Below, piece by piece: positions 30,693 to 36,445 of a DNA stretch of 36,445 nt. Numbering within the stretch: position 1 is the stretch's first letter; the number at the start of each line of letters is the position of its first letter. A model generated the notes under the pieces. The model was not told the DNA's origin, searched no databases, and was given only the letters and a program-made list of their open reading frames with translations. This DNA comes from an uncultured virus (IMG/VR IMGVR_UViG_3300017643_000041) (lineage: Duplodnaviria; Heunggongvirae; Uroviricota; Caudoviricetes), in IMG/VR virus record IMGVR_UViG_3300017643_000041. One strand, given 5' to 3'. A program made the position numbers and the translations under genes.

Positions 30693-31058
30693 ATGGATAA
30701 TGAAAAGAAAAAATATATGCTTTGCGGTGCTGTTTGCTTTGTGCTTATTTTGCTTGCCGGCTATTTCTTATGCAGGGACGTATCAGATAACGGAACAGGA
30801 ACTCGCCCAATTAGAGATGAACTTACTACAGCTACAGGAAAGCAACGAGCACTCACAAAAGGAATTGAAGGAGTTGAAGCTAGAACTGAAAACATCCAAG
30901 AGCGAGTTAGTAAAAGCGAAGCAGGAATTGACGCTGCTACAGACCGAGCTGAGGACGTTGAGGGAAAACTCACTAGCTCAGGAGAGCTTATTGCAAAATG
31001 CCAACAAATCCTTAGAGATATACGCGCAAGAGGAGAAGCAAAGAACGAAAGCAATTAG
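30693..31058 (+). CDS. Putative inner-membrane spanin: N-terminal TM plus coiled coil
   Basis: KKK followed by a ~20-aa hydrophobic anchor, heptad-like region and a single C-terminal Cys; GAGGTG RBS; end of lysis cassette. Confidence 0.65.
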   Translation: MDNEKKKYMLCGAVCFVLILLAGYFLCRDVSDNGTGTRPIRDELTTATGKQRALTKGIEGVEARTENIQERVSKSEAGIDAATDRAEDVEGKLTSSGELIAKCQQILRDIRARGEAKNESN

Positions 31059-31122
31059 GACTCAGCGCAATGTGGCATATGGCATTGGCGTAGGATTACT
31101 CTATGCTTTGATAAGGAAATAG
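30700..31122 (+). CDS. Putative spanin partner: signal peptide, coiled coil, C-terminal hydrophobic tail (+1 frame overlap)
   Basis: MKRKNICFAVLFALCLFCLPAISYA signal peptide, Leu/Gln/Glu heptads, VAYGIGVGLLYALIRK tail. Confidence 0.7.
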   Translation: MKRKNICFAVLFALCLFCLPAISYAGTYQITEQELAQLEMNLLQLQESNEHSQKELKELKLELKTSKSELVKAKQELTLLQTELRTLRENSLAQESLLQNANKSLEIYAQEEKQRTKAIRTQRNVAYGIGVGLLYALIRK

Positions 31123-31132
31123 TGGCTTTACT

Positions 31133-31173
31133 TACCCATCAGGGATTAAATTCCTTGGTGGGTATATTTTTTT
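31133..31173 (+). terminator. Terminator at the end of the late operon
   Basis: TACCCATCAGGGA / TCCTTGGTGGGTA stem plus T tract. Confidence 0.8.
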
Positions 31174-31176
31174 GTG

Positions 31177-31207
31177 AAAAAGACCGCCAGCATATAGCTA
31201 ACGGTCT
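31177..31207 (-). terminator. Terminator for the reverse-strand sigma-like gene
   Basis: AGACCG / CGGTCT stem with an A run at 31177-31181 (U tract on the minus strand). Confidence 0.55.
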
Positions 31208-31214
31208 AATGAAA

Positions 31215-31745
31215 CTAAATGATTAAATCTGGATATTTTTCGCGGATGCAAGAAGCAATTTTTTTGAGTCTAGATAACATGGTTGTACGGTGAATGCCTA
31301 ATTTGTTAGCAATGTCAGTGTCGGATAAACCATTAAGACGCATTGATGCCACTTTTAGTGCAAGTGGAGCAACGGTTTGTAGATGCTCGATAATATCCCC
31401 AGCTATAAATTGGTTGTCCACGGCATCTTCAAATGGTAAAATATCTGCTTCAAGAAATTCAAGCATATTGAAATCTTGACCTTCGTCAGATTGGTAAATA
31501 TAATCTAACGAGAGCTGGTTGCCAGCAACTTTGTACTTGCAGGCTTCACAGTCCATGTCACAGAACCACCATTTTTTTCTTGGACAGATGCATTTACCGC
31601 ATCGTTGTTGAGATTGGCGGTAGTAACTAATATGCTTTGTGCTTTCTCGATATACGTCTTCAGAAACCGGTACCCATATTTTTTGAGAACGTAGATAAAT
31701 ACTGAAGTTTTGCTCTTTTTTGCTTTGATTGTCATTGATTGCCAT
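31215..31745 (-). CDS. Mobile-element sigma-70 region-4-like HTH regulator with Cys-rich motif
   Basis: CICP....W.CDMDCEAC motif and C-terminal GLSDTDIANKLGIHRTTMLSRLKK HTH; GAGGAG RBS. Confidence 0.8.
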   Translation of the reverse strand: MAINDNQSKKEQNFSIYLRSQKIWVPVSEDVYRESTKHISYYRQSQQRCGKCICPRKKWWFCDMDCEACKYKVAGNQLSLDYIYQSDEGQDFNMLEFLEADILPFEDAVDNQFIAGDIIEHLQTVAPLALKVASMRLNGLSDTDIANKLGIHRTTMLSRLKKIASCIREKYPDLII

Positions 31746-31751
31746 TTGATT

Positions 31752-31946
31752 TCTCCTCTCGAATTGTCGAGAAGCGGAGATAAACCAAATGGCTGCCAGT
31801 ATTGCTTTTCATAAGATGGTCACCTCATACGGATTGCTCCGCCTCAAATTGGTGACCAGCCGTTCGTTAAGCTGGCACTGTATATTCAATTTCTTCCATC
31901 CATCAGCTACGAACACACTACCCGGCCGGGATAATAGTGAGCTGAT
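31752..31946 (-). ncRNA. Candidate structured cis-regulatory leader RNA
   Basis: Multiple nested and alternative stems, one of which sequesters the RBS (detailed in findings). Confidence 0.5.
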
Positions 31947-32061
31947 TTCAGGAAAAGTAGTTTAATGTCATGCTTGGGACGTGCAGTTTGACGGTATGTG
32001 TCCTTTTCTCAATGTAAAAATCCATAATGAACATGAAATATCCTTTTCACAAACTAAAAGT

Positions 32062-32090
32062 TTGATAAATGGACACAGGCGTGATATAAT
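32062..32090 (+). promoter_or_regulatory. Sigma-70 promoter of the defence operon
   Basis: TTGATA-17 bp-TATAAT with TG extension. Confidence 0.75.
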
Positions 32091-32228
32091 ATTAAAAACT
32101 AATTTTGCGTCAAATCCCCTGTGCCATTTGTTCTGCTTTTATTATAGAAAATGGCCCTTATTGATTTGGGGATGGTTTGGAGCACCGTGGTACATCGTGG
32201 TACAAATTAACGAGAAGGAGAAATATGC

Positions 32229-33365
32229 GTGGAATTCAAAGTATTTTTTTCAATGCTAAAAAACCGAATATCAGATGGTGCGGATGTCCCGTATTTCTTC
32301 AGAGATTTAATTGCGATGATTACGGATGTTGCGGAAGATGAATGGGGCACACCGAAAGACCCGTCAACGAAGTTATCAAAGGAAAGCACAATTCGGTCAT
32401 ATGCGAAGCGAAATTTGTCCCAGAAATTTGCGCAAAGCATTGTTTACAGACTGACACCAGAAGCCTTTGTAAGTACAATTGAAGATCGTCCGGATACAGT
32501 GCTGCGTCTGTTAGCCGAGGATTACAAGGGCTATGATGCATCTGCTGATGAGAGCAATATTGCAACACTGTTGGCGAATTGTTTTGTAGATATCATTCGC
32601 AGGACTGCCGGACTTGTGCAGCAGACAGAGTTAGAGAGGCAGAAGCAGATTCAGGCAGAAGTTGATATAAGAAACAGGTACGGAGATTACTTGATTAATG
32701 AAGCCGGTTATACATGTCCGTTTCCGGGTTGCGGGCATTCTCTTGTGATTAGCAATACTGGAAAGTCGACGAATTTGTTCAATGTTGCGCTTATAGATAA
32801 GAAAAAAGCGCCAGAGGTTTCAAACCTACTGGCGCTGTGTCCGAGATGCTATGGTACATATTCTGTTGATGATAATCCAAAGATTAGTAAGGAACTTAAA
32901 TCTGTAAAAAAAATAATTATAAGTCACAATAAAAACATACAGCTACTGGATGACCTTCCGCTTGAAAAAGGGATTGTTGGTGTTATATCAAGGATACCGA
33001 AATTGAATGAAAAGGAACTATCAGTGGTATCTTTTGACCCAAAGGAGATTCAGCAAAAGCTGGAGCCTTCTGAGAATATGGCACTTTATATAACGGTAAA
33101 AACGTATGTGGCTACTTACTATGTTAAGCTTCGTGAAATCATGATGAATGCTGATAAACGTGGAAGCATTGATTATGACGAAGTACAAGACCAGATGCGA
33201 GCAATATATAAACGCATGAAAAAGACGAAAAAATCGAATGCGGAAATATTCAACGAGATTGCGCAGAAAATCCACAAGGTGAGCCTACAAGAGGATATTT
33301 ACTGCCAAATTGTTGTATCCTACTTCATTCAGAGTTGCGAGGTGTTTGATGCAATTACCGAATAA
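32229..33365 (+). CDS. lmuA: Lamassu/ABC-three-component effector (HNH-like Zn domain plus CTD)
   Basis: CPFPGC...NLLALCPRC and C-terminal IVVSYFIQSCEVFD, characteristic of ABC-3C CTDs; operon context. Confidence 0.8.
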   Translation: MEFKVFFSMLKNRISDGADVPYFFRDLIAMITDVAEDEWGTPKDPSTKLSKESTIRSYAKRNLSQKFAQSIVYRLTPEAFVSTIEDRPDTVLRLLAEDYKGYDASADESNIATLLANCFVDIIRRTAGLVQQTELERQKQIQAEVDIRNRYGDYLINEAGYTCPFPGCGHSLVISNTGKSTNLFNVALIDKKKAPEVSNLLALCPRCYGTYSVDDNPKISKELKSVKKIIISHNKNIQLLDDLPLEKGIVGVISRIPKLNEKELSVVSFDPKEIQQKLEPSENMALYITVKTYVATYYVKLREIMMNADKRGSIDYDEVQDQMRAIYKRMKKTKKSNAEIFNEIAQKIHKVSLQEDIYCQIVVSYFIQSCEVFDAITE

Positions 33366-33573
33366 ATTATATTCATACAAAAACAGTACGCTTGCATTGA
33401 TGCCGGTCGTACTAAATGAAATTAAACAAAATCCAATACCTGTGGAGTCTTTATATATCCGATTAAGATCTATACTAAAAGACCCAACAGACTTTATGTC
33501 CGTAATGGATTGTTTGTATGCACTCCGGGCAGTAGATATCAATGATGAGGGGGAGGTGTTTATATGCTTATAG
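33349..33573 (+). CDS. lmuC: ABC-three-component middle component
   Basis: MQLPNKLYSYKNSTL...MDCLYAL pattern; small gene coupled between the effector and the ATPase. Confidence 0.8.
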   Translation: MQLPNKLYSYKNSTLALMPVVLNEIKQNPIPVESLYIRLRSILKDPTDFMSVMDCLYALRAVDINDEGEVFICL

Positions 33574-35228
33574 AAATGTGGTCACCTGCTTTCAAAGAAA
33601 AAGGTGAACAGCGCCCACCGATTAGGTTTAAAAAAGGACTGAATGTTGTTCTCGGCAAAGAGGACGGCGCTATGTCTATTGGTAAATCATCAGCACTTCT
33701 TGCGATAGATTTTGTATTTGGTGGAAATACCTACATTAAGAGTGATGGTGTAAGCAAAGAAGGCCATCATATCATTTATTTTGCTTTTGAATTCGATGGA
33801 GATAAGAAATACTTTGCCAGAAATACAGGTGCTGCTGATACAGTACAAATTTGCGACAGCAACTACGAACTTACGGGTAATAGTTTTTCAAAGTCTGAAT
33901 TTGTGGAATGGCTGAAAGTGCAGTATAAAATGGACTTCACAGGCATTTCCTTTAGAACTGCGCTAAGTAGCTTCTTCCGAGTGTACGGCAAGAAAAATAC
34001 CGATGAGTTGAATCCGCTTCAGGGTGTGCGTGGACAGAATATGGAGAAATCCATAACCACCATTTTGACCATTTTTGATGTTTACAAAGAAATAGCTGGC
34101 CTTAAGGCAAGCGTCGAAGAGCACAAAAAGAAGCTTGATGCTTATAAGACTGCCAGAAAATATAATTTTATCTCTGACCTTGTCGGTGGAAAAACGAAAT
34201 ATGAGGAAAACCTTGCGAAGATTCGTTCTCTAGAGCTTCAGCTAAGTACGTTGATGGAGGAAGCGGAAAAAGGACATACGGAAGATGAGATAGAAAAGAA
34301 CAAGCAGAAGTCTACCTTAACCACAGCTAAGTTGAATATAGAAACAGCGATACACTCCAAGGAAATGAAGCTACGTCTTGTGAAAATGAGCCTGGAGTAT
34401 GGACTATATCCGACAGAAGCCGATATGTCGGCTTTGCAGGAGTTCTTTCCGAATGTAAATTTACGAAAACTGTATGAAGTTGAAATGTATCATCAGAAAC
34501 TGGCGAAAATTCTTGATGCACAGTTTTTGAATGAGCAGACTGCTATTGAAAACGAAATTACAATGCTACAATCACAGCTCGAAGATGTGAAAACGCAAAT
34601 CAAGGAACTCGGTTTTGTTGGAAATCTTTCAAAGGAATTTCTGGACAGACATTCTGAAATAAAGGGTGAAATAGATGCCTTGAATACACAGAATCAAGCT
34701 TATCTTACGTTGACAGACCTTCAGGAAGCCAAGGCTGCGGCAGATGAAATATTGAAAAGAAGTATTGAAGACATCCTTCGTGAAATAGAAACGAAGCTCA
34801 ATACCAAAATGAAACAAATTAATGATTCCTTGTTTAGCACGCCGAGAAAACCGCCTCATATTCATTTCAATGAGTATAACAGCTATAGGTTTGAAACACC
34901 CGACGATACAGGCACAGGCTCAAACTTCAAGGGCATGATTGTATATGATTTGGCCGTTTTCTTACAAACGGCGCTTCCGGCGATTGCTCATGATTCCCTA
35001 CTTTTCAAGAACATTGAGAAGGACGTGGAGGATGGAATCATTCGTATCTATGACAGTACAGAGAAACAGGTGTTTATAGCATATGATAAACAGGGCGACT
35101 GTAGGCCCAAAACCAGAGAGTGCTTAGAAAGAAACGCAGTGCTCAGACTATCTACAGATGGTTGCGAATTATATGGCAGGTCATGGAACAAGGAGGAAGG
35201 TGCACAAAATGAAGATGAGCTACAATAA
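33564..35228 (+). CDS. lmuB: SMC-like ABC ATPase (DUF2326), Lamassu sensor
   Basis: FKKGLNVVLG...SIGKSS Walker A, long coiled coil, DTGTG signature, IAHDS Walker B, QVFIAYDK. Confidence 0.88.
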   Translation: MLIEMWSPAFKEKGEQRPPIRFKKGLNVVLGKEDGAMSIGKSSALLAIDFVFGGNTYIKSDGVSKEGHHIIYFAFEFDGDKKYFARNTGAADTVQICDSNYELTGNSFSKSEFVEWLKVQYKMDFTGISFRTALSSFFRVYGKKNTDELNPLQGVRGQNMEKSITTILTIFDVYKEIAGLKASVEEHKKKLDAYKTARKYNFISDLVGGKTKYEENLAKIRSLELQLSTLMEEAEKGHTEDEIEKNKQKSTLTTAKLNIETAIHSKEMKLRLVKMSLEYGLYPTEADMSALQEFFPNVNLRKLYEVEMYHQKLAKILDAQFLNEQTAIENEITMLQSQLEDVKTQIKELGFVGNLSKEFLDRHSEIKGEIDALNTQNQAYLTLTDLQEAKAAADEILKRSIEDILREIETKLNTKMKQINDSLFSTPRKPPHIHFNEYNSYRFETPDDTGTGSNFKGMIVYDLAVFLQTALPAIAHDSLLFKNIEKDVEDGIIRIYDSTEKQVFIAYDKQGDCRPKTRECLERNAVLRLSTDGCELYGRSWNKEEGAQNEDELQ

Positions 35229-35911: not shown

Positions 35912-36445
35912 ATGAAATATTCAGAACTCATTAGTTTTAGCCCAATTGAGTCGACCTTGCAGTTGATTCAGTCCAACAGCAATAAGGCAGAGGAAATCAA
36001 CAACATTAAAACCTACGTGATGTCTGAGGGCATGGCGCAGAGTATGAAAGCACCTGTTATCGACCAGTTACAGATGGATGAGGTCGTTGATAATAAAGGC
36101 GTGCTTATAGTTGGTAATTATGGTACTGGTAAATCTCACTTGATGAGCGTTATCTCTTCCATTGCTAAAGATGCAGACAATTTGCAGTATCTGCAGAATA
36201 AGACCTTTGCAAAAGATGTGGAATGCATCGCAGGCAAATTTGAAGTGCTGCGCATTGAAATTGGTGGCGTTACCATGTCACTTTACGATATTCTGTCGGG
36301 CTACATTCAGGATGACTTCGATAAAAGGAATATCGACTTCGAATTCCCGGAGCAGGCCACTGTTCGGAATCCCAAAAAAGTAATTCAGGATATGATGATT
36401 GCTTTCGCTGAAAAATATCCGGACAAGGGCTATCTGATTGTAGTT
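35912..36445 (+). CDS. brxC: BREX type 3 ATPase BrxC/DUF6079 (3' truncated; not in ORF track)
   Basis: Translated by hand: MKYSELISFSPIESTLQL...VDNKGVLIVGNYGTGKSHLMSVIS (Walker A); open to the window end. Confidence 0.88.
   Translation, partial: MKYSELISFSPIESTLQLIQSNSNKAEEINNIKTYVMSEGMAQSMKAPVIDQLQMDEVVDNKGVLIVGNYGTGKSHLMSVISSIAKDADNLQYLQNKTFAKDVECIAGKFEVLRIEIGGVTMSLYDILSGYIQDDFDKRNIDFEFPEQATVRNPKKVIQDMMIAFAEKYPDKGYLIVV

Follow-up and report, generated by a model that had tools for sequence, protein, structure and literature searches.

A divergent DUF2800 RNA variant as probable cis-acting leader of a cysteine-rich regulator gene in an uncultured Caudoviricetes genome

The 36,445-nt stretch of DNA analysed here (the window) is the IMG/VR record IMGVR_UViG_3300017643_000041 of an uncultured virus of the Caudoviricetes, and the element in question lies on its minus strand between about 31980 and 31741, where a structured RNA leader is predicted ahead of a gene for a 176-aa regulator protein rich in cysteine (Cys). 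A preliminary description, made from the letters of this DNA, had flagged 31752-31946 as a switch-like leader of a "sigma-like" master regulator. The functional strand of the leader is the minus strand, because the downstream gene runs from 31745 to 31215, and the flagged interval was too short, the conserved element extending from about 31980 (hairpin P0) to 31741. The complementary segments that had been listed were all read from the sequence at the places assigned to them on the plus strand (RBS, ribosome-binding site):

TCTCC 31752-56 / GGAGA 31776-80, plus coordinates: complementary pair of the RBS hairpin
TCTCGA 31757-62 / TCGAGA 31767-72, plus coordinates: complementary pair of the RBS hairpin
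31771-79 with 31837-45: competing pairing, on the minus strand GAGGCGGAG : CUCCGCUUC, 9 bp with one G-U
TGGTCACC 31817-24 / GGTGACCA 31851-58, plus coordinates: 8-bp stem (P2a)
TGCCAG 31794-99 / CTGGCA 31872-77, plus coordinates: stem P2
CCAGC 31856-60 / GCTGG 31871-75, plus coordinates: alternative hairpin P2'
ATCAGCT 31902-08 / AGCTGAT 31940-46 around CCCGGCCGGG 31921-30, plus coordinates: P1 domain

Read as minus-strand RNA, the leader and its gene comprise the following features (SD, Shine-Dalgarno; MFE, minimum free energy; ALT, the competing pairing; HTH, helix-turn-helix):

31957..31980, minus: P0, a small hairpin GUC (31980-78)-CCAAGCAU-GAC (31969-67) followed by AUUAAACUAC, outside the Rfam model
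31892..31956, minus: P1 domain, with its outer stem at 31956-51 / 31897-92
31946-37 / 31923-14 and 31908-02, minus: middle stem of P1, AUCAGCUCAC, at positions given by the MFE fold and the Rfam model
within P1, minus: apical stem around CCCGGCCGGG; the 3' internal loop of P1 is GUUCGU
31909..31914, minus: 5' strand of the pseudoknot, GUUCGU, within the P1 3' internal loop; its partner is ACGAAC 31867-31862
31862..31867, minus: 3' strand of the pseudoknot, ACGAAC, in the P2-P2a junction
31872..31877, minus: 5' strand of P2, UGCCAG, which pairs with CUGGCA 31799-31794 or alternatively, as P2', with GCUGG 31860-31856
31817..31858, minus: P2a, UGGUCACC 31858-51 / GGUGACCA 31824-17, enclosing an internal loop and P2b
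31842-38 / 31833-29, minus: P2b, GCGGA / UCCGU, inside P2a
31837..31845, minus: anti-sequestor (SD mimic) GAGGCGGAG, partly internal loop and partly 5' strand of P2b
31771..31779, minus: anti-SD arm segment CUCCGCUUC, ALT partner of the anti-sequestor and part of the 5' arm of P3
31741..31793, minus: P3, with anti-SD UCUCC 31780-76, SD GGAGA 31756-52 and AUG 31745-43, and no U-tract after it
31215..31745, minus: regulated gene, 176 aa, with a Cys-rich N-terminal half and a C-terminal sigma4/LuxR-like HTH

The minus-strand RNA of 31735-31960 has a predicted MFE of -80 kcal/mol compared with -56.8 ± 4.5 kcal/mol in 200 dinucleotide shuffles, none of which (0/200) folded as well (z -5.12), and its MFE fold includes the 5' domain P1, P2 (the TGCCAG stem), P2a (the TGGTCACC stem), the inner hairpin P2b and the RBS hairpin P3. 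The RBS-occluding hairpin of the preliminary description is therefore present in the fold; its extent had been understated, since P3 really spans 31793-31741 and covers the AUG as well. The predicted energies are -26.6 kcal/mol for P3 alone and -14.6 kcal/mol for ALT.

The preliminary description had named no RNA family, and the Rfam search that it proposed gave one meaningful match (scan of 31000-33000), namely the DUF2800 RNA (RF02960) at 31952-31789 on the minus strand, covering model positions 1-158 of 158 with 34.4 bits and an E-value of 7.9e-4. In the alignment every helix of the model (P1 with its 3' internal loop, P2, P2a and P2b) appears in order, and three flagged pairs of outer P1 are unformed. 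The nearest virus record (G001) also gave an RF02960 match of 34.4 bits. Across the whole window no Rfam family, C4 included, reached its gathering threshold, and the 531-nt leader region had no blastn match in the GenBank phage collection.

Relatives of the RNA and of its gene were collected in several ways. A degenerate pattern derived from the model core retrieved 24 viral loci, of which 20 were scanned and 18 proved to be canonical DUF2800 RNAs (118-161 bits). For the protein, a word index yielded only 2 close relatives and a first, single-protein scan of viral contigs yielded none, whereas alignment-based scans recovered 187 viral relatives, of which 80 were kept (62 distinct upstream regions). 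To these were added 41 genome loci from Oscillospiraceae, Ruminococcus, Lachnospiraceae, Clostridium, Selenomonas, Erysipelotrichaceae and others. Sequence profiles divided the 80 viral loci into 21 window-like, 22 canonical and 37 that were neither, and the 41 genome loci into 3, 21 and 17, respectively. The comparative tests below use 55-62 distinct relatives, and the set for the window-like subfamily comprises 17 distinct sequences with a mean identity of 88%.

In 17 of the 18 canonical loci an SD-containing RBS hairpin and a Cys-rich open reading frame (ORF) of about 170 aa lie within about 40 nt of the RNA, the exception being L012 with a different ORF. The proteins of the canonical loci are 25-31% identical to the 176-aa protein of the window, with invariant cysteines and a common C-terminal HTH. 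Since the canonical RNAs stand directly before homologues of this gene, the immediate gene of the RNA is the regulator, and the DUF2800 gene lies further downstream. A covariance model (R1) built from 14 canonical leaders with the platform included gave a single match over the whole window, at 31956-31743 (17.3 bits, E 0.006-0.008). Full-length R1 scores among the relatives form a continuum (about 225, 127, 100, 85, 30 and 17 bits), all of these RNAs precede homologous genes, and the intermediates between the window version and the canonical members keep the pseudoknot and ALT throughout. The window RNA is thus a divergent, sub-threshold and structurally consistent variant of the DUF2800 RNA. 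It shares with the family the helices P1, P2, P2a and P2b across the full model, the pseudoknot site, the logic of the RBS hairpin, the place ahead of homologues of one regulator gene and the occurrence in phages of Clostridia and relatives; it differs in a longer P2a, in a P3 that lacks a U-tract and extends over the AUG, in a possible upstream ORF, and in a solitary gene with its own terminator and no DUF2800 gene after it. The window-like subfamily as a whole, which lies under the Rfam threshold, lacks the U-tract and has the possible upstream ORF, is new here. The Rfam model stops before P3, so that the platform around the ribosome-binding site lies outside the catalogued motif.

The DUF2800 motif was one of 224 candidate RNAs reported by Weinberg et al. 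2017 (PMC5737381), in whose main text it goes unmentioned. The term RF02960 was not found in the literature searched, and the papers there that name DUF2800 appear to deal with the protein domain, as do the passages in PMC8143477.

Conservation of the structured domain was assessed in an alignment of 61 distinct leaders, which was fitted to the model and is therefore biased towards structure. In this alignment 91.3% of 2685 cells are paired and 41 of the 46 pairs show double changes, compared with 35-46% paired in slid controls. P1 (helices 1-2) has double changes in all of its pairs (17/17), P2 (helix 3) is 78.9% paired with double changes in 4 of 6 pairs, and the helices of P2a/P2b are 98.3% (helix 4) and 92.3% (helix 5) paired. 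Within the window-like subfamily P1 covaries and the pseudoknot is 100% paired, one of its pairs having changed on both sides. The pseudoknot links the P1 3' internal loop with the P2-P2a junction; 55 of 59 distinct rows have it at an identical position as a perfect Watson-Crick match of at least 6 bp (of the remaining rows, two have 5 bp and two are truncated). Seven versions occur: GCUCAA/UUGAGC, GUUCAG/CUGAAC, AUCCAGU/ACUGGAU, CUUUCCAGU/ACUGGAAAG, GUUCGUA/UACGAAC, GUUCGCA/UGCGAAC and, in the window, GUUCGU/ACGAAC. Shuffles of the individual sequences were not significant for the pseudoknot, and its support comes from the set of versions at one site. Upstream sequence of 45 nt was available for 55 distinct leaders, and 27 of them have the P0 hairpin with its (A/U)AAAC motif (stem GUC/GAC in 20, GCC/GGC in 5, others in 2). 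A lone P1-like domain also occurs in L142 (160-234), about 340 nt 5' of the complete DUF2800 RNA of that locus. A protein-coding origin of the structured domain was considered, as many window-like sequences have a stop-free frame of 49 codons; this frame is broken or shortened in L081, L094 and L141, canonical members have no equivalent, and the candidate was rejected.

The two pairings at the ribosome-binding site were examined on a MAFFT alignment of 55 distinct sequences from P2a to the AUG, which was not fitted to any structure. ALT is paired in 97.3% of 550 cells, with double changes in 5 of 10 pairs. Both sides have changed in 30 of its cells, a number that none of 500 shuffles reached (5.3 ± 2.0); slid controls are 35-58% paired. 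The same alignment gives paired shares of 92.7% for the SD helix of P3 and 86.1% for P2b, and thus three mutually exclusive helices are all maintained on one alignment. In addition, ALT is the main consensus helix that RNAalifold returns for 17 diverse leaders. ALT pairs 18-21 involve internal-loop positions that are unpaired in the fold with P3 closed (OFF) and yet covary with the anti-SD arm, so that a mere duplicate of the hairpin is insufficient as an explanation. Cells with G-U occur in both ALT and P3, as expected for RNA pairing. The preliminary description had proposed a cis leader with an RBS-occluding hairpin and a second pairing that frees the site, and had named a lack of covariation among homologues as refuting it; both pairings turned out to be conserved with compensatory changes among the relatives. 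The matched triplets, given as internal segment / anti-SD arm, are:

canonical: CGAAACGGAG / CUCCGUUUCG
Ruminococcus type: GAAUGGAG / CUCCAUUC
L093 type: GAGAUGGAG / CUCCAUCUC
L072 type: GAAGCGGAG / CUCCGCUUC
window: GAGGCGGAG / CUCCGCUUC

The full-length MFE fold is OFF in all six representatives (6/6), by 8-14.5 kcal/mol, and in transcripts cut just past the anti-SD arm ALT is in the MFE fold of 5 of 6 representatives, often together with P2'. The hairpin P2' (CCAGC/GCUGG) forms in the predicted folds of the ALT state and has a different alignment register in canonical members. Of 55 leaders, 39 have a U-run of at least 4 behind P3, but none of the 11 window-like leaders has one. Where the U-run is present, as in most canonical relatives, P3 may also terminate transcription, although the U-run is only a hint in this respect because the terminator scan does not call P3 of the canonical L005; in the window subfamily, which has no U-run after P3, control would be translational.

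Taken together, these results make it probable (about 0.7 by our estimate) that the gene of the 176-aa regulator has its leader on the minus strand between about 31980 and 31741, and that this leader is a divergent DUF2800 RNA acting in cis as a translational switch with riboswitch-like logic. Its architecture would consist of an optional P0, of P1 with a pseudoknot to the junction inside P2, of the nested P2-P2a-P2b and of P3 stacked directly on P2, where GAGGCGGAG in the P2a loop copies the SD arm and complements the anti-SD arm of P3. In the OFF state GAGGCGGAG would be held in P2b and the internal loop, P3 would form and translation would be blocked; in the opposite (ON) state GAGGCGGAG would pair with the anti-SD arm, P3 could not close and the ribosome-binding site would be free, ALT forming either as a pseudoknot with P2a kept, as the preliminary description implied, or with P2 refolded into P2'. 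The decision could be taken co-transcriptionally, a locked sensor domain leading to P3 and an unlocked one to ALT first, so that the SD would emerge free. While the structures and their conservation are observed, we infer that both states alternate in vivo, and candidates for what shifts the balance are a small ligand, a host or phage factor acting on the structured domain, or co-transcriptional folding alone.

The three-element logic (anti-anti-SD, anti-SD, SD) would resemble that of translational riboswitch platforms. In the thiM TPP riboswitch of E. coli, a translational OFF switch, an anti-anti-SD strand is held in the folded sensor, the anti-SD comes next and the SD is sequestered, and the window leader has the same order of elements. 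It differs from thiM in that no ligand is known or implied by the gene context, in that its gene is a phage regulator and not a metabolic gene, and in that the nucleotides of a putative pocket are unconserved across subfamilies. In phage Mu, the zinc-finger protein Com, encoded just upstream of mom, is required to open the mom translation start; there too the start of a phage gene is hidden by a hairpin that must open for expression, whereas no Com-like gene adjoins the window leader, its upstream neighbour being a divergent ABC-3C defence gene.

Several points speak against a switch of this kind or against its assignment to the family. The OFF state is predicted to be much the more stable, no evidence points to an effector, and the folding energies ignore the pseudoknot. 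The competing 9-bp pairing is present just as the preliminary description had it, but it is not beyond chance in the window sequence alone: when the upstream 192 nt were shuffled 1000 times, a 9-bp run against the 5' arm of P3 with at most one G-U arose 92 times, and a run as long as ALT with unlimited G-U 568 times, so that the significance of this pairing derives from the comparison with relatives only. Many of these relatives come from similar gut metagenomes and hence are not independent, and P2, P2a and P2b are invariant in the window-like subfamily, which makes them uninformative there. The RF02960 match (34.4 bits) does not reach the gathering score of 60.2, and sequence-only profiles (nhmmer) of window-like and canonical RNAs gave no cross-match at E ≤ 1e-5, so that the homology of the two is drawn from structure and context. 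The canonical internal-loop consensus (CAAUCCGAA / GGACUG) is lost in the window, which makes a shared ligand pocket less likely; neither the window-like nor the L093-type leaders keep it. The AAUA junction motif and the GGAG of P2b are kept.

A mutually exclusive platform coupled to a sensor domain, by which a riboswitch is recognised, is found here in the conservation of ALT, P2b and P3. We consider tentatively, and with more doubt than belief, that the structured domain is a true sensor, i.e., an aptamer with a pseudoknot that would recognise a small molecule or a conserved host factor and gate translation of the first gene of the early operon in a temperate phage of Clostridia and, in most relatives, also transcription past it. 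If so, early-gene expression or induction of the prophage would be tied to a host signal, and the unrelated leader classes described below would be interchangeable inputs for different signals or immunity types.

In a first alternative, a static translational damper, P3 would hold synthesis of the regulator down or make the mRNA more stable, and the upstream domain would have another task such as processing, stability or early-operon antitermination; the ALT complementarity would then reflect nothing more than the need of the internal segment and the SD arm to match one and the same anti-SD arm or binding factor. Such a damper agrees with the 8-14.5 kcal/mol by which OFF prevails in the six folds, with the energies of P3 alone and of ALT, with the lack of a known effector and with the RBS hairpins that homologous genes still have behind quite different leaders. 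It is at odds with the covariation between the anti-SD arm and ALT positions unpaired in OFF, with the fact that ALT is the best kept of the three helices (97.3% paired), and with the upstream match to the own anti-SD arm that other leader classes also have (judged by eye), and we regard it as unlikely.

A further alternative arises from two minus-strand features of the window leader:

31732..31812, minus: possible upstream ORF of 26 codons (AUG 31812-10, stop 31734-32), which extends across P3 and past the main AUG in the +1 frame
31826-20, minus: SD-like GAGGUGA of the upstream ORF, identical with the P2a 3' strand

Ribosomes starting from GAGGUGA/AUG (31826-31810) could melt P3, so that translational coupling would be the main route in this subfamily, with the folding of P2a hiding the ribosome-binding site of the upstream ORF itself. 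L094, in which the upstream AUG is AUA, and 18 of 24 other DUF2800-type leaders, which have no ATG-started frame through the main start, speak against coupling as the main route, as does the coincidence of the conserved peptide residues with RNA-constrained helices. Of the 17 distinct window-like leaders, 16 contain the upstream ORF; its SD match is 7 nt long, its spacer measures 7-8 nt, it is invariably in the +1 frame, and the main AUG lies 67 or 70 nt away. Indels within it are multiples of 3, and the subfamily is also the one without a U-tract after P3. Among sequences that are on average 88% identical, however, some 23 codons of open frame count for little, and we think it quite improbable that coupling is the main route.

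The preliminary description had likened the leader to the P4 CI and P1 c4 RNA controls, and this analogy was not supported. The P4 CI RNA and the P1/P7 c4 antisense RNA (C4, RF01695) are processed RNAs that act in trans, block a ribosome-binding site and repress. As in these systems, the window RNA would be a phage RNA made from the leader of the controlled operon, pair near the ribosome-binding site and control a regulator; unlike in them, the partners in the window are all in cis and the internal segment would derepress. A trans-acting immunity RNA of this kind, in which a fragment processed from the prophage leader would base-pair with the leader of its own or an incoming phage and define the immunity specificity, is very unlikely: the scan of 31000-33000 listed 8 matches with E-values up to 10, none of them to C4, a segment in the sense of the SD would in trans open the ribosome-binding site (i.e., activate) and not block it, no terminator or processing signal lies between the structured domain and P3, and all partners are within one transcript. 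These points outweigh for us the residence of the element in a phage, the swapping of leader types before near-identical regulator genes in the manner of immunity modules, and the far better conservation of the RNA compared with the protein. That the inverted CTCCG-type motifs at P2b and P3 are half-sites of a repressor at the DNA level and the RNA pairing incidental is hardly credible, even though the two palindromes derive from the same motif about 60-105 bp apart and the product of the regulated gene has an HTH, given that ALT and P3 tolerate G-U cells, one arm is a Shine-Dalgarno properly spaced from the AUG, the covariation in P1, P2, P2a and the pseudoknot does not depend on these motifs, and the sites lie 130-330 bp downstream of the promoter-like site.

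The protein behind the leader belongs to the function-unassigned family phrog_13787, and a search of 1.84 billion proteins gave 469 cluster representatives at E ≤ 1e-3; the invariant cysteines of the protein are C52, C62, C66 and C69. Pfam gave only sub-threshold C-terminal matches (HTH_30 with 20.5 bits at a cut-off of 27, Sigma70_ECF with 13.1 at a cut-off of 21.1), and all NCBIfam sigma models stayed far under their cut-offs. Residues of about 105-170 match sigma4/LuxR HTH in a profile search against the PDB (E 1e-4 to 1e-3). For the AlphaFold model, which has a predicted local distance difference test score (pLDDT) of 90.2, Foldseek found nothing at E ≤ 1e-3, and its top weak matches are all sigma factors (best E 9e-3). 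Sigma region 2 was not found in domain and profile scans. Of the designation "sigma-like" there remains the sub-threshold resemblance of the C-terminal HTH, regions 2 and 4 of a sigma-70 factor not having been found above the cut-offs, and it is a loose label for this regulator; "master regulator" is inferred from the position of the gene.

Upstream and downstream of this unit we note the following:

32086..32113, minus: promoter-like site TTGACG-16-TATTAT (consensus scan, 10/12 matches)
31177..31206, minus: terminator-like hairpin GACCGUUAGC-UAUAU-GCUGGCGGUC followed by UUUUU, 9 nt 3' of the stop codon

The promoter-like site places the predicted start of the leader about 100 nt 5' of the conserved RNA. 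The preliminary description had named a transcription start downstream of the stems as a refuting result; this site, the sole promoter-like one on the minus strand there, lies upstream of all stems. Its -10 region, TATTATATCAC, recurs in the alignment in L094, L128, L110 and L015. A divergent promoter-like site occupies 32062-32090 on the plus strand; the two -10 regions overlap (32085-32091), and binding of RNA polymerase at the two sites may be mutually exclusive. The first 80 nt of the predicted leader contain an inverted repeat UGUGUCC...GGACACA, which is partly kept in L094. The hairpin at 31206-31177 was not called by the terminator scan, and in the Rfam search it aligned to the terminator of an unrelated small RNA model. 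Given this terminator-like hairpin after the stop codon, the regulator is a single-gene unit in the window. The public RNA runs were considered as a source of expression evidence and set aside, as they contained on this stretch only four wastewater contigs of about 180 nt, whose loose ends are L028-like and not those of this phage, and which are uninformative on starts, strand and level.

The regulator gene of the window is oriented away from the other phage genes, a small XRE gene excepted. The DUF2800 operon does not follow the regulator in the window, in G001 or in L028, and PF10926 was found in none of the 23 window ORFs scanned (a subset of the ORFs of the window). Other window-like loci run on into DUF2800; L150 has the regulator first, then two small ORFs, then DUF2800 (PF10926, E 4e-163) and finally an Enc34-type single-stranded DNA-binding protein. 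Divergent to the leader lies an ABC-3C defence system (CTD11, MC7 and a DUF2326 ATPase) at 32229-35228 on the plus strand, followed by the start of a DUF6079 protein (35912-36445, plus strand). Other ABC-3C variants occupy the same position beside the same RNA in L150 and L094.

The structured domain of the window is 71-93% identical to that of other window-like loci, while their proteins are only 27-38% identical to that of the window. To follow leader and gene separately, we used 55 loci with a full 230 nt of sequence upstream of a gene whose protein shares at least 85% identity with the L072 protein; shorter upstream regions and partial matches were dropped. The leaders before these proteins are distributed as follows:

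window-like: 30/55
short leader with a CUGUGA-type hairpin: 14/55
L093-type: 8/55
other canonical-like: 2/55
large terminator-like hairpin: 1/55

Proteins that are at least 85% identical (L147-L205, the L072 relatives) thus stand behind at least four leader types. Several leader types before near-identical proteins mean that leader and gene have been exchanged independently, which makes it less likely that the leader is recognised by the fast-evolving protein of its own gene and favours a conserved host input or a separately encoded partner. It suggests that the leaders are exchangeable control modules; if confirmed, this would bear on the inputs to lysis-lysogeny and immunity in gut prophages. 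The DUF2800 RNA is one of many catalogued bacterial and phage motifs without known function, and we find it to be the leader not of the DUF2800 gene, which lies four genes further along, but of a small Cys-rich HTH regulator that heads a phage early operon. The conserved two-state platform around the ribosome-binding site turns this orphan motif into a directly testable switch model.

An Rfam search of the other leader classes found no family that covers them. One class (L031, L048, L062, L078, L030, L043, L111 and L143) has a large hairpin with an inner terminator-like stem, whose 5' strand (AAUCCGCCAGA-like) also complements the anti-SD arm of the RBS hairpin of its own locus; it is the same logic with another sensor. 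In the short-leader class (L053, L064, L066, L067, L112, L115 and L122) a hairpin CUCCUGUGA-gaaa-UCACAGGAG with a U-run lies upstream, which mimics the RBS hairpin of the regulator gene and in some loci stands ahead of a conserved -10 box. The gut-2 RNA (RF02990) was found above its cut-off at L043:198-245 and L048:282-329, in both cases several hundred nt 5' of the homologous regulator genes.

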